A stretch of 64,000 nucleotides of DNA, taken from a virus. Its lineage: Duplodnaviria; Heunggongvirae; Uroviricota; Caudoviricetes. Positions 698-28,213 of the stretch are shown here, one piece after another. The notes beneath the pieces are model-generated. The model did not search any database and was not told where the DNA came from. It saw only the letters and a list, made by a program, of their open reading frames with translations. A program made the translations under genes and the position numbers. Position 1 is the stretch's first letter, and every line of letters begins with the position of its first letter. The DNA lies in IMG/VR virus record IMGVR_UViG_3300045988_024527, positions 1-64,000 of that record, one strand, 5' to 3'.

Positions 698-785
698 GGT
701 AGGTAGCGGCTAATGGTAGCCAAACTGTCTTGAAAACAGTTGCCACTGTAGAGATACGGTGAGGGTTCGACTCCTTTACTTACCG
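698..785 (+). tRNA. tRNA-Ser (anticodon UGA), class II long variable arm
   Basis: Acceptor ggtaggt/acttacc, anticodon stem actgt/acagt with loop cttgaaa (TGA 731-733), long variable arm, T-loop ttcgact 766-772. Confidence 0.7.
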
Positions 786-1040
786 CCTAATAAGATTTAA
801 TTCCCGCGCTCGTCTAACAAGCTCGGTTTTTACTCGTGTATTGTCGTACACACTGACAAAGCACCTAGTAGGTGTCACGGAGAAGAGATAATATCAAGCT
901 CTCCAAAGGTTCTAGTCACCGGATTAAACAAGACTATGCAAAGACCTTTCTAGGTCTTTTTAGAGGGCTTCTAAGGTTATTACAGCTTGTTGTGGAACCT
1001 TGTTGCTTAGGTTCTTAGAAGTTCTCTAAAAAGGTTTAAT

Positions 1041-1118
1041 GGGAGATTGACGGTAATTGGTAAACCTATCTCGCTTAGAACGAGATGTTTGAGGGTTCGA
1101 ATCCCTTGTCTCCTACCA
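1041..1118 (+). tRNA. tRNA with anticodon UAG (Leu-type anticodon, short variable arm)
   Basis: Anticodon stem tctcg/cgaga with loop cttagaa (TAG 1076-1078), T-arm gaggg-ttcgaat-ccctt, acceptor gggagat/gtctcct with two G-U pairs, CCA 1116-1118. Confidence 0.5.
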
Positions 1119-1125
1119 AGTTAAT

Positions 1126-1201
1126 GCAGGTGTAGCAAAATGGTTATGCGGCTGACTCTTAATCAGTAAGACGATGGGTTCAATTCCCTCCACCTGTACC
1201 A
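1126..1201 (+). tRNA. tRNA-Lys (anticodon CUU)
   Basis: 76 nt; acceptor gcaggtg/cacctgt, anticodon loop ctcttaa (CTT 1158-1160), T-loop ttcaatt, CCA 1199-1201. Confidence 0.65.
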
Positions 1202-1206
1202 AAAAT

Positions 1207-1282
1207 GGGGTCATAGTTTATATGGTTAAAATTCGAGTTTTGCAAACTTGGGAACTGAGTTCAATTCTCAGTGACTCCACCA
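1207..1282 (+). tRNA. tRNA-Ala (anticodon UGC)
   Basis: 76 nt; acceptor ggggtca/tgactcc with G3-U70, anticodon stem cgagt/acttg with loop tttgcaa (TGC 1240-1242), T-arm ctgag-ttcaatt-ctcag, CCA 1280-1282. Confidence 0.8.
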
Positions 1283-1288
1283 ATTAGT

Positions 1289-1363
1289 GCATCCATAGTT
1301 TAAACGGGAAAATTACAGTCTTCCAAACTGAGGTTGAGGGTTCGATTCCCTCTGGATGCTCCA
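1289..1363 (+). tRNA. tRNA-Gly (anticodon UCC)
   Basis: Acceptor gcatcca/tggatgc, anticodon loop cttccaa (TCC 1322-1324), T-arm gaggg-ttcgatt-ccctc, CCA 1361-1363. Confidence 0.8.
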
Positions 1364-1370
1364 AATTAAT

Positions 1371-1447
1371 GCTGCTTTCGTATAATTGGCTATTACACAT
1401 CCCTTGTAAGGATGGAAATGCAGGTTCGAGTCCTGTGAGCAGCACCA
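1371..1447 (+). tRNA. tRNA-Thr (anticodon UGU)
   Basis: Acceptor gctgctt/gagcagc, anticodon stem catcc/ggatg with loop cttgtaa (TGT 1405-1407), T-loop ttcgagt, CCA 1445-1447. Confidence 0.8.
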
Positions 1448-1542
1448 ATTCAGAGGTCAAGTGAAAGACCGCTGGTGTCAACTGAAGACCGTAACAAATT
1501 CCACGGAGTTGAGTTAGCGGCACAACTTCAGACCTCTTTCAC

Positions 1543-1617
1543 ACTCGCTTAGTTTATATGGTAAAGCCCCATCCTTACAAGTTGGTGAAAAAGGTTCAAG
1601 TCCTTTAGTGAGTACCA
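1543..1617 (+). tRNA. tRNA-Val (anticodon UAC)
   Basis: Acceptor actcgct/agtgagt, anticodon loop cttacaa (TAC 1576-1578), T-arm aaagg-ttcaagt-ccttt, CCA 1615-1617. Confidence 0.7.
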
Positions 1618-1618
1618 T

Positions 1619-1696
1619 GTTCCAGTATCCCAATTGGCAGAGGATGCAAGCTCAAACCTTGTACTAGTGACGGTTCGAATCCGTCTTGGAACACCA
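1619..1696 (+). tRNA. tRNA with anticodon CAA (Leu-type anticodon, short variable arm)
   Basis: Acceptor gttccag/ttggaac, anticodon stem gcaag/cttgt with loop ctcaaac (CAA 1653-1655), T-arm gacgg-ttcgaat-ccgtc, CCA 1694-1696; 78 nt, variable region only about 6 nt. Confidence 0.55.
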
Positions 1697-1712
1697 ATTT
1701 TAGGAGAGCACT

Positions 1713-1820
1713 ATGAGTGATAAGTCCATCGCAAAAAAGTTTAGAGCGTCATATCTAAACAGACGTAAAAACAAAGTTTGTGAAAAACTGTATGGTGTTC
1801 TCGTAGGTAAGCAGGATTAG
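1713..1820 (+). CDS. hypothetical small protein (35 aa), MSDKSIAKKFRASYLNRRKNKVCEKLYGVLVGKQD
   Basis: ATG 1713 preceded by aggagag SD; stop TAG 1818-1820 lies inside the start of tRNA-Arg; below ORF-track size cutoff. Confidence 0.25.
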   Translation: MSDKSIAKKFRASYLNRRKNKVCEKLYGVLVGKQD

Positions 1821-1886
1821 TTCAAATGGATAGAGCAACAGTCTACGAAGCTGTTAATAGGGGTTCGAATCCCTTATCCTGCGCCA
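1811..1886 (+). tRNA. tRNA-Arg (anticodon ACG)
   Basis: 76 nt; perfect acceptor gcaggat/atcctgc, D-stem gttc/gagc, anticodon stem acagt/gctgt with loop ctacgaa (ACG 1845-1847), T-loop ttcgaat, CCA 1884-1886. Confidence 0.85.
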
Positions 1887-1904
1887 GATAAGCAAGAGGA
1901 ATTT

Positions 1905-2147
1905 ATGCAAACATTAATCGTCGTTGCACATGAAAACCCCAATAGTATTGAGTTTGTAAGGGTTCCCACTATAGATACCCACATTTTCTTGAAAGTCGGA
2001 TGGGAATGCGACCCAATAAAAGTAGGGAAATTTCTTGGTCATTACTTTGGTGGAAGACAATTTAAAAGTATCAATTTTGAGACAGTGTTACCAGAAAACT
2101 CAGAAACAGATAATAATACTTACCTCCTTACGAGGATTAGACAATGA
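1905..2147 (+). CDS. hypothetical protein (80 aa) embedded in tRNA array
   Basis: ORF track; abuts the next ORF; no recognisable motif. Confidence 0.35.
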   Translation: MQTLIVVAHENPNSIEFVRVPTIDTHIFLKVGWECDPIKVGKFLGHYFGGRQFKSINFETVLPENSETDNNTYLLTRIRQ

Positions 2148-2701
2148 GATACTTAAAATATGCTTCATGGATTTTCCTAGCTTTACTAGAACCATTTGCA
2201 GCAGCCCTAGCAGTCATCTTAGCACCTTTCGTAGTTCCATTCTACAGTGAGAAGAAAGGACATCTACCTTTTGGATTCAGATGGATGGAGACCTACGACA
2301 ACCCGATTGATGGTGATGAAGGTCACGTTAAAAGATGGGCTAAGATTAGAAAGATTGGTAAGCTGGGTGTCTACATGCAGAGAGTTGGATGGCTCTGGAG
2401 AAACAAAGCTTATAACTTCTCTTACCATGTATTAGGAAGAGATGTAAAAGATGTTACTAAGTGGAAAGGTAATATCAACGTAAGTTCTAACCCTGAAGAT
2501 AATCAGACTGGTTATCTCCTAATGTGGAACAGTAATGCTTGGGGATTATTCGCTTTTATCCCATCAATTAAAGTCTTTGGTAAACAGTTTTACTGGAGAA
2601 TTTATATTGGATGGAAACTAAAAAGTGTTGTCCCAGAAGAAAGAGCATTCTCAAGGGAAAGAGTTATGTTGGCATTCTTTATTCATCCACTGAGAAAGTA
2701 A
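2144..2701 (+). CDS. hypothetical membrane-anchored protein (185 aa)
   Basis: ORF track; hydrophobic N-terminus IFLALLEPFAAALAVILAPFVVPF, Trp-rich body; function not recognised. Confidence 0.5.
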   Translation: MRYLKYASWIFLALLEPFAAALAVILAPFVVPFYSEKKGHLPFGFRWMETYDNPIDGDEGHVKRWAKIRKIGKLGVYMQRVGWLWRNKAYNFSYHVLGRDVKDVTKWKGNINVSSNPEDNQTGYLLMWNSNAWGLFAFIPSIKVFGKQFYWRIYIGWKLKSVVPEERAFSRERVMLAFFIHPLRK

Positions 2702-2709
2702 AGATTTAA

Positions 2710-2785
2710 AGGGGATTAGTTTACAAGGTTAAAACCTCGGTCTTTGAAATCGAAGAAGTTGGTTCAATTCCAACATCCCCCGCCA
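2710..2785 (+). tRNA. tRNA-Gln (anticodon UUG)
   Basis: Anticodon stem tcggt/atcga with loop ctttgaa (TTG 2744-2746), T-arm gttgg-ttcaatt-ccaac, acceptor with A1-C72 mismatch, CCA 2783-2785. Confidence 0.7.
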
Positions 2786-2787
2786 AT

Positions 2788-2866
2788 GCTCCATTACTCC
2801 AATTGGCAGAGAGGCCAGACTTAAAATCTGTGTTATGTATCGGTTCGAATCCGATATGGAGTACCA
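2788..2866 (+). tRNA. tRNA with anticodon UAA (Leu-type anticodon, short variable arm)
   Basis: Acceptor gctccat/atggagt, anticodon loop cttaaaa (TAA 2822-2824), T-arm atcgg-ttcgaat-ccgat, CCA 2864-2866; 79 nt, variable region about 7 nt. Confidence 0.5.
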
Positions 2867-2871
2867 ATTTT

Positions 2872-2947
2872 AGCGGTATAGCATAACTGGCAATGCAACA
2901 GTCTCTGAAGCTGTCCTATTAAGGTTCAAATCCTTATGCCGCTGCCA
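2872..2947 (+). tRNA. tRNA-Gln (anticodon CUG)
   Basis: 76 nt; acceptor agcggta/tgccgct, perfect D-stem gcat/atgc, anticodon stem acagt/gctgt with loop ctctgaa (CTG 2905-2907), T-loop ttcaaat, CCA 2945-2947. Confidence 0.75.
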
Positions 2948-2978
2948 CTTCTAAGGGTTCTTACGAGAGTCCTTAAAT

Positions 2979-3054
2979 GTGGCCTTATCATAAATGGTAA
3001 TGACCCATGCTGTGAACATGGTCTATACGGGTTCAAATCCCGTAGGTCACCCCA
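2979..3054 (+). tRNA. tRNA-His (anticodon GUG)
   Basis: 76 nt; acceptor gtggcct/aggtcac, D-stem tcat/atga, perfect anticodon stem ccatg/catgg with loop ctgtgaa (GTG 3012-3014), T-arm acggg-ttcaaat-cccgt, CCA 3052-3054. Confidence 0.8.
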
Positions 3055-3059
3055 ATTTA

Positions 3060-3136
3060 TAGCCCAAGTAGCTTATATGGTTAAAGCGCGTGTCTGAAAA
3101 ACATGAGAAGAGGGTTCAAATCCCACTGGACTACCA
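3060..3136 (+). tRNA. tRNA-Phe (anticodon GAA), imperfect acceptor stem
   Basis: D-stem gctt/aagc, anticodon stem cgtgt/acatg with loop ctgaaaa (GAA 3096-3098), T-loop ttcaaat 3115-3121; best acceptor pairing tagccca/tggacta has one mismatch and irregular spacing. Confidence 0.45.
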
Positions 3137-3152
3137 ATTTCAAAGGTGCTTA

Positions 3153-3887
3153 ATGAAAGAGATGACAGAACAAGGTAAGGAGATTTTTAATCTCTTAAAA
3201 ACCGGTAAAGGGTTTTCTAACCCACTTATTACTGGTGCAGCAGTTCTCGGTGGAACCGTAGCTGCCTCTACATCACTTGTAAGCTCTATTAGCTCTGTAA
3301 CAGACCCTACAATGAAGGAGAAACTTGTTGCTGCTGGACTTACAACAGTCCTTCTAAACAGTTTTACAACAAGCCTGACAAGCACTACAGCAACCACTAA
3401 GACCTTAACAGATTATGGTCAAAAGTCTATTGATGAGTTTTCATCACGTATGCAGGTAGCAAAGGGATACTCCAATGTTATGGGTGCAGCAGGAGAACAA
3501 GTTGGTTGTACACCATTCAGTGGTATTATGGGTGTTGCTACAGAGTATGGTCAAAAAGCTATTGACATGATTAACAGTACACTAGATAGTGTTAATGGTG
3601 TGTTAAGTGACTTACAAGACGCTATTGACAAGGGTCTTGATACTGTTTCTGATTTAGCTAACCAAGCTGTCAGTAAGATTAATGAAGGTATTTCAAAGAT
3701 TACAGCTTATGCAGATGAAGTTGTGCAGATGATTGAAGAAGAAGCTGCCCTTATTGCAGAGTACCTTAAAACGAATATCAATGGGTTCTTAGCAGGTATC
3801 TTACCAGACTGGTTTGATGATGCCTGTAAAACTGGTGTAATTGACACTATTGCAACACCAGAAATGAAGAGCGCATTACAGAAATAA
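3153..3887 (+). CDS. hypothetical protein (244 aa) embedded in tRNA array
   Basis: ORF-track frame 3090-3887; start moved to ATG 3153 (SD-like aaagg upstream) because 3090-3136 overlaps tRNA-Phe; Ser/Thr-rich N-terminus, no recognised domain. Confidence 0.5.
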   Translation: MKEMTEQGKEIFNLLKTGKGFSNPLITGAAVLGGTVAASTSLVSSISSVTDPTMKEKLVAAGLTTVLLNSFTTSLTSTTATTKTLTDYGQKSIDEFSSRMQVAKGYSNVMGAAGEQVGCTPFSGIMGVATEYGQKAIDMINSTLDSVNGVLSDLQDAIDKGLDTVSDLANQAVSKINEGISKITAYADEVVQMIEEEAALIAEYLKTNINGFLAGILPDWFDDACKTGVIDTIATPEMKSALQK

Positions 3888-3888
3888 T

Positions 3889-3981
3889 GGAAGATTAACC
3901 CTAAAAGGTAAGGGAGCAGTTTGCTAAACTGCCAGTAGCTGAGAAATCGGTGTACCAGTTCAAGTCTGGTATCTTCCTCCA
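3889..3981 (+). tRNA. tRNA-Ser (anticodon GCU), class II long variable arm
   Basis: 93 nt; perfect acceptor ggaagat/atcttcc, perfect anticodon stem gcagt/actgc with loop ttgctaa (GCT 3923-3925), about 21 nt variable arm, T-arm accag-ttcaagt-ctggt, CCA 3979-3981. Confidence 0.85.
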
Positions 3982-3985
3982 ATTT

Positions 3986-4061
3986 GAATCCGTGACAGAA
4001 ATGGCTATGTGCCTGTCTGCAAAACAGGTTTATAATGGTTCAAGTCCCTTCGGATTCTCCA
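3986..4061 (+). tRNA. tRNA-Cys (anticodon GCA)
   Basis: 76 nt; perfect acceptor gaatccg/cggattc, perfect anticodon stem cctgt/acagg with loop ctgcaaa (GCA 4019-4021), T-loop ttcaagt, CCA 4059-4061. Confidence 0.8.
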
Positions 4062-15759: not shown

Positions 15760-23790
<8,031 letters not shown>

Positions 23791-23792
23791 TA

Positions 23793-24959
23793 ATGGCAGT
23801 AGGTGAAATTCAAATTAGTGCCTTGCCTCAAGCAGCCTTACCAATTGACCTTAGTGATATCTTCCATCTTAAGCAGGGTATTGAGGATAAGAGATGCACT
23901 CTTGAGCAATTACTTGCTCCACACTCAAGCCTAAGAAATAACCCTCATGGTGTTACTAAAACACAAATTGGTTTAGATAATGTTATTAATGCTCTTCAGT
24001 TAGTTGCTGCAAATAACTTATCAGATATTGTTAATGTAGCTGAGGCAAGAGCAAATCTACAGATTATGTCTTCAGAAGAGGTTAATAACCTTGTTCAACA
24101 GCATATTAATGATAAGAGTAACCCACACAATACAACTAAGGCACAGGTTGGTTTAAGTAATGTTCAGAACTGGACAACATCTAACCTTTATAATGAGGAT
24201 GCAGATAAGTACGCTACAGCAAGAGCAGTAAATAACTTGTACAAGGCTGTTCAGGCTTCCTATCCAGTAGGTACTATCCATCTTTCCATGAACTCTGCAA
24301 ACCCTTCTACATATTTAATTTGTGGAGGTACTTGGGAGTTAGTTTCAAGAGGAAGAGCACTTGTAGGTTATGATAGTGATTCTAGGCCAGTTGGTAGTAA
24401 CTTTGGCTCAAGTAGTGTTAGCTTATCTAGTAACAACCTACCATCACATAGCCATTCAATCTACCTAACTGGTGGTGGACATACTCATGGTGCTGCTATT
24501 ACTATCGATGGCTTTGATTACGGCAATAAGAGCACAAACAGTTTCGATTATGGTACTAAAGCCACTAACACTACTGGTGCTCACACCCACTCAGTGAGCG
24601 GTTCAACAAATACCACAGGTAATCACACACATACTGTAGGTGGTCGTTACGGAGGTGACTCTATCGGTGGTAAACTACGTGTTCAGGTATCTGGTACAGA
24701 ACAGGTTTCCAGTGTAGCTGGTGACCACTCACACACTATTAGCGGTTCAACAAATACCACAGGCAATCACCAACACACTGTTGCAATTGGTGCTCACACG
24801 CATACTGTTGCAATTGGTGCTCATACCCATAAAGGCACAGTAACTTTGCAGTCATCTGAGCATACTCACTCAGGTACTACAGGTACTACAGGTGCTGGTC
24901 AAGCATTCAGCGTTGAACAACCATCCTTTGTGGTTTATGTATGGCAAAGAACCGCTTAA
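23793..24959 (+). CDS. tail fibre protein with C-terminal His-x-His repeat domain
   Basis: C-terminal about 180 aa contain repeated HxH motifs (SHSHS, GHTHG, AHTHS, NHTHT, DHSHT, AHTHT); C-terminal domain paralogous to that of 25011-27533. Confidence 0.65.
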   Translation: MAVGEIQISALPQAALPIDLSDIFHLKQGIEDKRCTLEQLLAPHSSLRNNPHGVTKTQIGLDNVINALQLVAANNLSDIVNVAEARANLQIMSSEEVNNLVQQHINDKSNPHNTTKAQVGLSNVQNWTTSNLYNEDADKYATARAVNNLYKAVQASYPVGTIHLSMNSANPSTYLICGGTWELVSRGRALVGYDSDSRPVGSNFGSSSVSLSSNNLPSHSHSIYLTGGGHTHGAAITIDGFDYGNKSTNSFDYGTKATNTTGAHTHSVSGSTNTTGNHTHTVGGRYGGDSIGGKLRVQVSGTEQVSSVAGDHSHTISGSTNTTGNHQHTVAIGAHTHTVAIGAHTHKGTVTLQSSEHTHSGTTGTTGAGQAFSVEQPSFVVYVWQRTA

Positions 24960-25010
24960 AAATTCTTTTACAGGGGGGCTGTACAGCCCTCTTTCTAGAG
25001 GACAAAAATA

Positions 25011-27533
25011 ATGGCAGATTACAAGTTGAGTGAATTAAACTCAATCGATACAATCCGTTCAGATGACCTTCTTCATGTCAGGGTTAAAAAGAGACCTGAA
25101 ATGCTGGGTGATGAAGACCGTCGAATGACCTATCAAGATTTCTTAGCATCTTTTAAGCTTGAAAGATTTGTTCAGATTGCTGGTAGTACTATGACTGGTG
25201 ACTTAGGGATTGTTAAGTTACTTTATGGTGGTAAGGCAGTCTTTGACCCTACAGGCTCTTCTGAGATTACTATGGGGGATGTTTTAAAGACTTTTAAAAT
25301 TAACGCAAACGGACTTAGATTAACTATTGCAGATGCTTCAAGGTCGGCAACTGTTTATCATACCCTGAATAAACCAAGTCCTAATGAGCTTGGGATGAGA
25401 ACTAATGAAGAGAATGATGCAAGATATGCAAGGCTTGCTGTTACAAACACATTCTCTGGGACTCAGAACATTCAAGGTGATGTTAACTTACTTCGCCTTA
25501 GAAACCAAAATGCAAATAATGCACAATATATTGAAGGTGTAGACCTAGATGGTTCAGCTAGATGGTTGGTTGGTATTAGTAAAAATGGCTCTGATGCAGT
25601 TCAGTTGTACAATAACAAATATGACTCAGCTTTGACTATTGCAAGTAATATCTCTGTTAATAAGTCTTTAGCAATCACTGGTCAAGTTCAGCCTTCTGAC
25701 TTCTCTAACTTAGATGCTAGATACTTTACTCAGACAGCATCTAATCAGAGATTTGCACAGTTAGCTGCTAATAATGCTTTTAGCGGTGAAAATACATTCG
25801 GTAAACCTATTTCCGTAAAAGCTAATGAAGCTGCTATCATGTTACAGAATAAAGATGTAGGCGAGGAGTTATTCATCCTAGCAAAAGATAGCGAGTACAA
25901 TAATTTATGGTTTATTGGTAAAGGTGATACAAGCTCTGATATCACATTTTACGATTACAAGGGTAATACCTCTATTACCTTAAACTCGTCTGGCGTAGCA
26001 TTAAATAAGAATGTAAGAATCGCTGGTCAAGTACAACCTTCTGACTGGACTAACATTGACTCTAGATACATTCCGGCAGGGACTTTGAGTAATCTTGCTA
26101 AGATTGACACCAAAAATACCTTCACACAAGGTCAGGTTATTATGGTTGATGGTGAAGGTCTTAAATTACAAGGGGTGACTGATAGTGGTGGACTATTCTT
26201 ACAAGGTTATGACTCATTAAATAACAAAAAATGGTTTATGGGACATAACGGATTTGGAAACTTCACTATCCGTGAAATGGCATTAGGAACCGAACTCTCC
26301 CTAAGAGCAAATAATATTCAGTTTAACAAAAGCATCACAATTACTGGTCAAGTTCAACCTTCTGATTGGACTAACATTGATGGGAGATACTATAACAAAT
26401 CATCTGCTGATAATAGATACCTTAGAGTAAGAAGTACTGGATTCAATACTGGTGGTGCTGGTAAATGGGCTAAGATTGCTACTGTCAGTATGCCACAGGG
26501 TACATCAACAGCAGTGATTGAACTGTTTGGAGGGTCTGGATTTAACTTTGGTGTAATTAACCAAGCCTGTAAAACAGAAATTGTTCTTAGGACAGGAAAT
26601 GGTAACCCAAAAGGTTTAAATGTTGTTGCATGGAAAAACTCACCGAATGGTGTTGTAGACCAAATTGGGTATGTTAACACCTCTGGTGATAACTATGACA
26701 TTTATTGCGTAGTTGGTAGCTATCAAAACGCTACGACAGCTAGGGTTCAGTCATCATCTAATGCAGCAGTAGAACTGTTTGAGACTCCAGAGACCTCTGA
26801 CAACGCTCCATCTGGCTATGTTGATGGGACAATTGCTCACTATTATACGAGTATTTTGAAGCCAACCCCTTCAGATATTGGTGCATACACTAAAGCTGAA
26901 ACTGACCAGAAGATTGCACAGGCAATTAGTGACTCTACAGACCTTAATAAAATCTATCCAGTAGGTATTGTAACGTGGTTTAACAGTAATGTTGACCCTA
27001 ATACTGCACTCCCTGGTCTAACTTGGACGTACCTGAACAATGGTGTTGGCAGGACTATCAGAATCGCAGCAGCAAACGGTTCAGATGTTGCTACAACTGG
27101 CGGTTCAGATTCTGTAACGCTATCTGTTGGTAACTTACCTTCACATACCCACAGTTTCTCAGCTACAACGTCAAGCTTTGACTATGGTACGAAGACATCT
27201 AACAGCACTGGTGCTCATACCCACGCAGTGAGTGGCTCTACTAACCACACTGGTGCTCACCAGCATAGTGTAGGTGGTCGTTACGGTGGTGACTCTATCG
27301 GTGGTAGACAGCGTGTTCAGGTAGAAGGGACAAACCAGATTTCAAGTGTTGCTGGTGACCACTCCCACACACTATCAGGTACTGCTGCATCTGCTGGTGC
27401 TCATGCTCACACAGTAGGTATTGGTGCTCATACCCACACAGTATCTGGTAACACTGGTGGTACAGGTTCTGGTTCAGCATTTAGTGTTACTAACCAGTTC
27501 TACAAGTTAATGGCTTGGGTAAGAACTGCTTAA
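25011..27533 (+). CDS. long tail fibre protein (internal tandem repeats, C-terminal His-x-His domain)
   Basis: 840 aa; three repeats of I(T/A)GQVQPSD(F/W)(S/T)N(L/I)D.RY starting near 25675, 26021, 26341; C-terminus GNLPSHTHS...AHTHAVSGSTNHTGAHQHSVGGRYGGDSIGG... Confidence 0.7.
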   Translation: MADYKLSELNSIDTIRSDDLLHVRVKKRPEMLGDEDRRMTYQDFLASFKLERFVQIAGSTMTGDLGIVKLLYGGKAVFDPTGSSEITMGDVLKTFKINANGLRLTIADASRSATVYHTLNKPSPNELGMRTNEENDARYARLAVTNTFSGTQNIQGDVNLLRLRNQNANNAQYIEGVDLDGSARWLVGISKNGSDAVQLYNNKYDSALTIASNISVNKSLAITGQVQPSDFSNLDARYFTQTASNQRFAQLAANNAFSGENTFGKPISVKANEAAIMLQNKDVGEELFILAKDSEYNNLWFIGKGDTSSDITFYDYKGNTSITLNSSGVALNKNVRIAGQVQPSDWTNIDSRYIPAGTLSNLAKIDTKNTFTQGQVIMVDGEGLKLQGVTDSGGLFLQGYDSLNNKKWFMGHNGFGNFTIREMALGTELSLRANNIQFNKSITITGQVQPSDWTNIDGRYYNKSSADNRYLRVRSTGFNTGGAGKWAKIATVSMPQGTSTAVIELFGGSGFNFGVINQACKTEIVLRTGNGNPKGLNVVAWKNSPNGVVDQIGYVNTSGDNYDIYCVVGSYQNATTARVQSSSNAAVELFETPETSDNAPSGYVDGTIAHYYTSILKPTPSDIGAYTKAETDQKIAQAISDSTDLNKIYPVGIVTWFNSNVDPNTALPGLTWTYLNNGVGRTIRIAAANGSDVATTGGSDSVTLSVGNLPSHTHSFSATTSSFDYGTKTSNSTGAHTHAVSGSTNHTGAHQHSVGGRYGGDSIGGRQRVQVEGTNQISSVAGDHSHTLSGTAASAGAHAHTVGIGAHTHTVSGNTGGTGSGSAFSVTNQFYKLMAWVRTA

Positions 27534-27540
27534 TCCCTTG

Positions 27541-27595
27541 TTGACTGATTGTTAAGATGGTGTTAATATTCTTTATGGGTATTCTCACCATCTTG
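27541..27595 (+). promoter_or_regulatory. sigma70-like promoter with embedded inverted repeat
   Basis: TTGACT 27541-27546, 17 bp spacer, TAATAT 27564-27569; 9 bp inverted repeat aagatggtg (27555-27563) / caccatctt (27587-27595) brackets the -10 and start region. Confidence 0.45.
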
Positions 27596-27612: not shown

Positions 27613-27810
27613 ATGCCTACAATCCTAGCAATTCTTCTAAAAAATCTAGGTAGCTTCTTCTGGAAACTCGTTTTATCCCTTCTAAGTGAATACATGATTG
27701 AGAAAGTGTTCTTTAGGCTTGCAAGATATCTTGCGAGTAAGACAGACACACCTATTGATGATGAGTTCGTAGATAACTTAGAAAAAGCTTTTAAGGGGGA
27801 GAATAAATGA
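27613..27810 (+). CDS. small membrane protein (possible holin-like)
   Basis: 65 aa, hydrophobic N-terminus ILAILLKNLGSFFWKLVLSLL, charged C-terminus; downstream of tail fibres. Confidence 0.3.
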   Translation: MPTILAILLKNLGSFFWKLVLSLLSEYMIEKVFFRLARYLASKTDTPIDDEFVDNLEKAFKGENK

Positions 27811-28178
27811 AGTGGCTAGAGGAAGCTTTTAAAAATAATATTGGTGCAATTGTAGTTGGTATTTTTAGTGTTATTGGTATGTATACCACCATGCAAGTCT
27901 CGGATGGTAAGCAAGAAGTGTCTATCACAACAAAGTTACAGCAGTTAGATAATTATTCCAAAAGTAATTATTCAGCTATTCGTGATTTACAGTCTGATAT
28001 GAGGCTGCTTCAGCTAGGGATGGAGAACCAGAAAGTTCAGTTAGAGAATGTTAAGGGTGAGAACGCAAAACTTACCAAAACTCTTGATAAATTCTCTGAC
28101 AGCGTGAACAATTTGGCTCAATCAGTATCAGCCTTGCAAGCTATTACTGAAAAGAACACAAAGAATACTGAAAAGTAA
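27807..28178 (+). CDS. membrane-anchored coiled-coil protein
   Basis: 123 aa; TM segment IGAIVVGIFSVIGMYTT followed by coiled coil; ATGA-coupled to upstream ORF. Confidence 0.3.
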   Translation: MKWLEEAFKNNIGAIVVGIFSVIGMYTTMQVSDGKQEVSITTKLQQLDNYSKSNYSAIRDLQSDMRLLQLGMENQKVQLENVKGENAKLTKTLDKFSDSVNNLAQSVSALQAITEKNTKNTEK

Positions 28179-28184
28179 GATTTA

Positions 28185-28206
28185 AGGCTCCTTTTTACGG
28201 GAGCCT
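28185..28206. terminator. bidirectional terminator between convergent gene blocks
   Basis: Stem aggctcc/ggagcct with T-run after on + strand and A-rich loop for - strand. Confidence 0.6.
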
Positions 28207-28213
28207 TTTTGTT

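Follow-up and report, generated by a model that had tools for sequence, protein, structure and literature searches.

The paired tail fibres of Felix O1-like phages have been described in three earlier studies. Whichard et al. (2010) observed a likeness to gp37 of phage T4 at the C-termini of both gp76 and gp77 of Felix O1 (PMC3185647), and Simoliunas et al. (2015) found VpaE1 gp74 and gp75 to be likewise gp37-like (PMC4690856). In 2025, cryo-electron microscopy (cryo-EM) of Bas63 revealed a short fibre of 430 Å and a long fibre of 630 Å, each ending in a gp37-like collar, a six-stranded His-x-His needle (seven and six motifs) and a small head, and both tips were compared with 2XGF (PMC12609058). 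The PDB entry 2XGF (Bartual et al. 2010) is the structure of the receptor-binding tip of T4 gp37 (residues 785-1026), solved by crystallography. In the present work, we focus on two adjacent and co-oriented fibre genes (23793-24959 and 25011-27533, + strand) found in a 64,000-nucleotide stretch of viral DNA (positions 1 to 64,000 of IMG/VR record IMGVR_UViG_3300045988_024527), hereafter named the window. A previous sequence-only reading had placed both open reading frames (ORFs) at these coordinates and proposed that their products share a diverged C-terminal domain of the T4 fibre-tip kind. Both the observation and its interpretation are right and already published for the genus; since the three above-cited papers describe both tips as gp37-like, the two-tip finding is not new and in itself changes nothing. 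The explanation of the locus that we consider highly probable is that the two gp37-type-tipped fibres present the same head type and most likely recognise the same or a similar epitope of the lipopolysaccharide (LPS) core. The addition made here is modest and testable, namely a head cassette shared and exchanged between the two fibres, which goes beyond what is reported in PMC3185647, PMC4690856 and PMC12609058.

With regard to the origin of the window, 266 phage records match the fibre locus (megablast), with identities of 87-94% for the best of them. Every one of these phages is a Felix O1-like myovirus, the Salmonella phages BPS17L1 and Mushroom being examples, and Escherichia phages account for 141 of the 266 records matching the whole locus. 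By these matches, the source phage is assigned to Felixounavirus as a Felix O1-like myovirus; it is regarded as a Salmonella phage. Comparison with the annotations of Felix O1, BPS17L1 and Mushroom revealed that the locus is syntenic with Felix O1 ORF74-80, in the order baseplate protein, 100-residue platform protein, short fibre, long fibre, two small ORFs and an opposite-strand thymidylate synthase. The product of the platform gene (23488-23790, + strand; phrog_4141) matches over residues 1-100/100 the Bas63 'LTF platform protein (gp025)' (PDB 9NDY chain S, E 1e-64, phmmer against the PDB), and is thus identified by homology as the baseplate attachment point of the long fibre. Owing to the synteny, the platform neighbour and the membership in phrog_2097 and phrog_4277, ORF 23793-24959 (388 residues; phrog_2097 tail fibre, E 7.5e-140) is assigned as the short fibre (Felix O1 gp76, Bas63 gp26), and ORF 25011-27533 (840 residues; phrog_4277, E 0, full length) as the long fibre (gp77, gp27). 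The short fibre gene corresponds in both position and length to Felix O1 ORF76, while the long fibre falls into an 840-residue class together with those of BPS17L1 and Mushroom, Felix O1 being in a 782-residue class. Gene order, lengths and families are those of the pairs already known in the genus (Felix O1 gp76/gp77, VpaE1 gp74/gp75 and Bas63 gp26/gp27), but the window phage is a distinct isolate, as reflected by the above-mentioned identity of its best locus matches. For annotation purposes, the names short tail fibre and long tail fibre can be given to these genes with confidence, each product having a gp37-type, putatively metal-stabilised, tip.

The homology between the two fibre C-termini, which had been proposed from the letters, is well established. 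Short-fibre residues 157-339 align with long-fibre residues 649-811 at 52% identity (BLASTP, E 2e-48), and the local alignment extended to the C-termini covers 187 codons with 60% amino-acid and 63% nucleotide identity. Nucleotide identity is highest over GGRYGGDSIGG (91%), and an ungapped direct repeat of 197 nt (24540-24736 and 27174-27370) is 80% identical. The motifs quoted in the sequence-only reading, namely GGRYGGDSIGG(K/R)(L/Q)RVQV, SSVAGDHSHT and (A/N)H(T/Q)H(T/S)V, were all recovered. Its estimate of the extent of the domain did not hold, as the domain begins not at 24420 but at a YPVG collar motif (residue 157, nt 24261, in the short fibre; residue 649, nt 26955, in the long fibre) and comprises 232 and 192 residues instead of about 180 and 140. 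Relative to the long-fibre tip, the short-fibre tip carries two insertions of 21 and 20 residues, each bringing His-x-His motifs. Among the 207 mismatches, all twelve substitution types are present, and adenine occupies 73 of the 207 positions in the short fibre and 54 of the 207 in the long fibre (26-35%). The earlier claim that substitutions are not adenine-specific, and hence the exclusion of a diversity-generating retroelement, therefore holds. A template/variable-region pair of such an element was rejected, given that the differences are not confined to the adenines of one copy.

The His-x-His repeats had also been likened to those of the T4 long-tail-fibre tip. Database comparison extends this beyond resemblance to direct sequence homology, with short-fibre residues 146-359 matching 2XGF chain residues 18-227 (E 1.8e-25), long-fibre residues 700-819 matching 2XGF chain residues 94-218 (E 1.4e-18; phmmer against the PDB in both cases), and the His-x-His motifs aligned. 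The Bas63 fibre-tip chains were not found in the PDB by phmmer, the platform protein being the sole Bas63 match. The short fibre harbours nine His-x-His motifs, the long fibre six (3 + 3) and T4 gp37 seven, compared with the seven and six reported for Bas63. The seven T4 motifs are in register with seven of the nine short-fibre motifs in the 2XGF alignment, and the two extra ones, PSHSHS and SEHTHS, are collar-proximal, the outward and return strands having one each. When 76 diverse homologues are aligned, conservation reaches at least 90% in eight of the His columns, and Pfam detects a 14-residue phage fibre repeat on the His-x-His units. Histidines number 24 in the short fibre protein and 17 in the long fibre protein, mostly in the tips.

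The boundaries of heads and needles were set from the His-x-His motifs and the 2XGF alignment, all features being on the + strand. The short-fibre collar (residues 157-216; 24261-24440) coincides with a Gp10_C domain (Pfam PF21939) at residues 154-269, which scores 66.6 bits, above the cut-off of 27, and its best structural neighbours are T4 gp10, gp11 and gp12. The likeness to the C-terminal domain of these T4 proteins (PF21939 / PF07484) concerns the collar, whereas the long metal-lined needle is absent from them. The long-fibre collar (residues 649-709; 26955-27137) was located by BLASTP alignment to that of the short fibre, and with 21.6 bits, under the cut-off for Gp10_C, it is assigned only via this homology. 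The outward strand of the needle carries four His-x-His motifs in the short fibre (24441-24638; H219/221, H230/232, H264/266 and H278/280) and three in the long fibre (27138-27272). It leads to a distal head loop, GGRYGGDSIGGKLRVQVSGTEQVSSVA in the short fibre (residues 283-309; 24639-24719) and GGRYGGDSIGGRQRVQVEGTNQISSVA in the long fibre (residues 755-781; 27273-27353). In both fibres, this loop lies between the last motif of the outward strand and the first of the return strand, and is the counterpart of the T4 head. The short-fibre head, which is the predicted ligand-binding end, aligns with a T4 gp37 segment that ends in NTNAA and separates the third His-x-His motif of T4 from the fourth. 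The return strand, delimited with the aid of the paralogue alignment, carries five motifs in the short fibre (24720-24956) and three in the long fibre (27354-27530), and ends with a C-terminal strand (...VWQRTA and ...AWVRTA, respectively). In the short fibre, R387 of this strand is invariant, and W385 nearly so, among the 76 homologues. Of note, the outward and return strands of the short-fibre needle share a 64-nt direct repeat with 81% identity (24574-24637 and 24718-24781, encoding GxHxHxxSGSTNTTGNHxHTV), which indicates that the needle has grown by internal duplication.

Compared with the T4 gp37 tip, collar, His-x-His needle and distal head thus follow one another in the same order with homologous sequence, and the C-terminal strand would likewise return to the collar. 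However, each strand of the short fibre has one more motif on its collar side, the head loop sequences are unrelated to that of T4, and the tip is borne by two separate single-gene fibres, whereas gp37 forms the distal half of a four-protein fibre. Each fibre of the window is presumably a homotrimer with its own N-terminal baseplate-binding and shaft region, and three Pfam gp37_trimer domains are detected in the long-fibre shaft (E 2.6e-58), with repeats at 25659, 26004 and 26325. In the C-terminal module, a gp10/gp12-like collar would be followed by a needle in which the chain runs outward, forms the small distal head and then returns towards its starting point at the collar. In the trimer, the His-x-His motifs would face inward from all three chains and hold metal ions in a row, as Fe(II) is held in the T4 gp37 tip. 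Judging from motif counts, there may be up to nine metal sites in the short fibre and six in the long one.

Across the genus, the head loop acts as an exchangeable cassette, being replaced wholesale while the His-x-His strands on either side are conserved. Most Felixounavirus genomes harbour unrelated heads on the short and long fibres (for example, the loci L001, L004, L017 and L020). In the window, on the other hand, both fibres bear one head type, and the two loops agree at 22 of 27 residues. This GGRY-type head is present in 77 phage records, mostly in two copies; 71 of the organism names start with Salmonella and one with Escherichia. Head type is thus associated with host, as Escherichia phages make up 141 of the 266 whole-locus matches. 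When single, as in BPS17W1, the GGRY head sits on the short fibre. At the nucleotide level, the divergence between the two window heads is 0.17, versus 0.26 and 0.43 for the flanks. At synonymous sites, the head shows a divergence (pS) of 0.32, compared with 0.61 and 0.84 for the needle strands on either side of it (Fisher P = 0.001); three other blocks of the tip are at 0.46-0.70.

Nucleotide distances were also compared, with simple distance statistics, in 13 genomes carrying a GGRY head on both fibres. The return strand displays a short-versus-long distance of 0.36-0.45 in every genome, with a nearest neighbour in the other fibre class in 0/27 instances. For the head, the within-genome distance ranges from 0.01 to 0.21, and the nearest neighbour belongs to the other fibre class in 7/27. 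This distance is 0.01 in UAB_Phi87, 0.02 in BPS17L1, 0.02 in Seyj1-1 and 0.05 in Felix O1 (two heads 95-99% identical at the DNA level in these four phages), compared with 0.17 in the window. Furthermore, the two heads of one genome lie nearer to each other than short and long heads paired at random (permutation P = 0.0024). The closeness of the heads within genomes, next to diverged flanks, indicates that the head has repeatedly undergone ectopic recombination between the short and long fibre genes. We cautiously favour the view that such recombination, or gene conversion, repeatedly homogenises the heads in Salmonella-infecting Felixounaviruses and keeps both fibres on the same LPS-core ligand, the evidence from these 13 genomes for a concerted evolution of the two heads being suggestive. 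The conserved repeats encoding the His-x-His motifs would act as recombination anchors. In T-even phages, recombination at conserved 'His-box' motifs reportedly swaps gp37/gp38 adhesin specificity, as Tetart, Desplats and Krisch are said to have described in 1998. The likeness lies in conserved GxHxH-encoding stretches flanking a variable receptor-binding segment that is exchanged as a cassette, with the difference that here the exchange also takes place between two paralogous fibre genes of one genome. No gp38-like gene was found adjoining the fibre genes in a scan that covered the two ORFs downstream of the long fibre, which belong to PHROGs of unknown function. If true, the homogenisation of the heads would represent a case of two receptor-binding proteins evolving in concert.

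Two further features of the heads deserve mention. Among otherwise near-identical Salmonella-type heads, the position following GG[KR] (24675-24677 and 27309-27311 in the window) is hypervariable, with L, Q, P or H. The short and long fibres display KL and RQ in the window, KH and KH in Felix O1, and KP and KH in Si3, and this residue is a candidate for fine specificity. In addition, two other Felixounavirus loci from IMG/VR (L003 and L016) have a long-fibre head, EAWNGTG(A/R)GG(S/D)KMSSYAV(A/S)YR(A/T)GGSNTNAA, that hardly differs from the head of T4 gp37. This implies that Felixounavirus and T4-like phages have exchanged the cassette, and the head is probably that of the VpaE1-type fibre, for which 54% identity to gp37 has been reported.

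The head loop would be the ligand-contacting part of each fibre, and the presence of the same head type on both tips argues for the same or a very similar ligand and against two specificities. Most likely, the sugar epitopes that the two fibres target on the LPS core of Salmonella are identical or closely similar, and Felixounavirus-resistant Salmonella mutants map to the LPS-core genes rfaK and rfaB (PMC6669636). The long fibre would then make the first contact, and the short fibre would ensure firm attachment and triggering. Head sharing, with exchange in relatives, bears on the ability of Felix O1-type phages to lyse almost every Salmonella, and on whether host resistance needs the loss of one ligand. 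The head loops (24639-24719 and 27273-27353) are also the places where host-range determinants may be sought or engineered.

Several observations weigh against two gp37-type tips with a common ligand. In an AlphaFold2 monomer model of the short-fibre tip, the predicted local distance difference test (pLDDT) score is 85-93 in the collar and a moderate 52-76 in the needle, and Foldseek with this model did not return 2XGF, the best hit (E 0.04) being to gp10. The intertwined trimer is beyond the reach of a monomer model, so that the proposed hairpin-needle geometry rests on the homology and on the published Bas63 maps. Fold searches lead weakly to T4 gp10, gp37, gp11 and gp12, with gp10-type C-terminal domains on top of the Foldseek list. 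The sequence-only reading would have been contradicted by a prediction devoid of any tip-like fold; the results obtained are consistent with such a fold without being decisive. As to the ligand, the precise receptor of Felix O1 is still elusive according to the BASEL paper (PMC8594841), and it is for this reason that we infer, rather than report, the LPS-core assignment. Moreover, the window heads differ at 5 of 27 residues, one of them the variable residue that follows GG(K/R), and fine specificity could therefore differ between the two fibres. Lastly, some Salmonella relatives, BPS17W1 for example, keep the GGRY head on the short fibre only, and a shared head is thus not obligatory.

An alternative is that the two tips bind two different receptors, conferring dual specificity or a wider host range, as in phages with two distinct receptor-binding proteins. 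The sequence-only reading had suggested two receptor-binding proteins from two paralogous tips. The existence of two tip-bearing fibres is borne out, in agreement with Bas63 (PMC12609058), with the qualification that the common head type argues against two specificities. The unrelated short and long heads of most Felixounaviruses would fit dual specificity, as would the residues that distinguish the window heads and the unequal needle lengths (9 versus 6 His-x-His). Yet no part of the window tips is less diverged at synonymous sites than the head, and the two heads are nearly identical in UAB_Phi87, BPS17L1, Seyj1-1 and Felix O1, so that we regard two receptors as possible but unlikely for the window phage.

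A second alternative, quite improbable in our opinion, is that the likeness of the heads reflects a folding or structural constraint only, host specificity residing elsewhere, whether in the beta-helix repeats of the long fibre or in further proteins of the baseplate. Such a location would be in line with the higher ratio of non-synonymous to synonymous divergence (pN/pS) of the long fibre compared with the short fibre (0.33-0.40 and 0.09-0.13, respectively, versus orthologues). In Bas63, moreover, the beta-helix repeats of the long fibre are unexpectedly variable, and a possible role in host recognition has been raised (PMC12609058). However, the wholesale replacement of heads beside conserved His-x-His strands is unlike what a constraint predicts, and the GGRY head is almost confined to records named as Salmonella phages. 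In T4, furthermore, receptor choice is determined by the region homologous to the head.

The idea that one fibre gene is a decaying duplicate, or that the repeat is a retroelement template/variable pair, has nothing in its favour but the existence of a diverged repeat and is almost certainly wrong, in view of full-length ORFs compared with 37 relatives, ribosome-binding sites, pN/pS of 0.09-0.40, the presence of both proteins in the virions of relatives, and a share of A positions of merely 26-35% among the mismatches. For the same reasons, a pseudogene or non-expressed remnant, which would have spoken against the earlier proposal, was rejected. Both genes are intact and evolve under purifying selection, and they are preceded by Shine-Dalgarno sequences (AGGAG, 8 nt before the ATG of the short fibre; GAGGA before that of the long fibre). 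Both are present in all 37 related loci examined (28 from IMG/VR and nine from GenBank), with lengths of 375-402 residues for the short fibre and 777-871 residues for the long fibre. The virion proteome of Felix O1 includes both fibre proteins, gp76 at low coverage (PMC3185647), and both are likewise present in virions of VpaE1 (PMC4690856) and in the cryo-EM maps of Bas63 (PMC12609058). In two records, L019 and L027 (Si3), the long fibre ORF is split in two (541 + 259 and 453 + 311 residues), which may represent a sequencing frameshift or a truly disrupted fibre in phages that are still infectious.

In the surroundings of the fibre genes, a hairpin with a 9-bp stem and a GTAC loop can be read from the sequence in the 51-nt gap between them (24972-24993, + strand). 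A clean T-run is absent after the stem, and a terminator scan did not call the hairpin, which might influence how much of one fibre is made relative to the other. The long fibre gene is followed by a promoter-like site (27541-27569; TTGACT, 17 nt, TAATAT, with an upstream TG), then by the two small ORFs (65 and 123 residues; 27613-28178), the longer of which is labelled 'holin' in some relatives, and by a strong terminator-like hairpin (28184-28207). The central baseplate spike protein (20117-20740, 207 residues) harbours a C-terminal His-x-His at residues 188 and 190, the positions also reported for the iron-binding puncturing tip of Bas63, which suggests a third, unrelated and predicted His-x-His metal site in the virion. 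Lastly, 16 tRNA genes are clustered at 698-4061 on the + strand, with a tRNA-His(GTG) among them.

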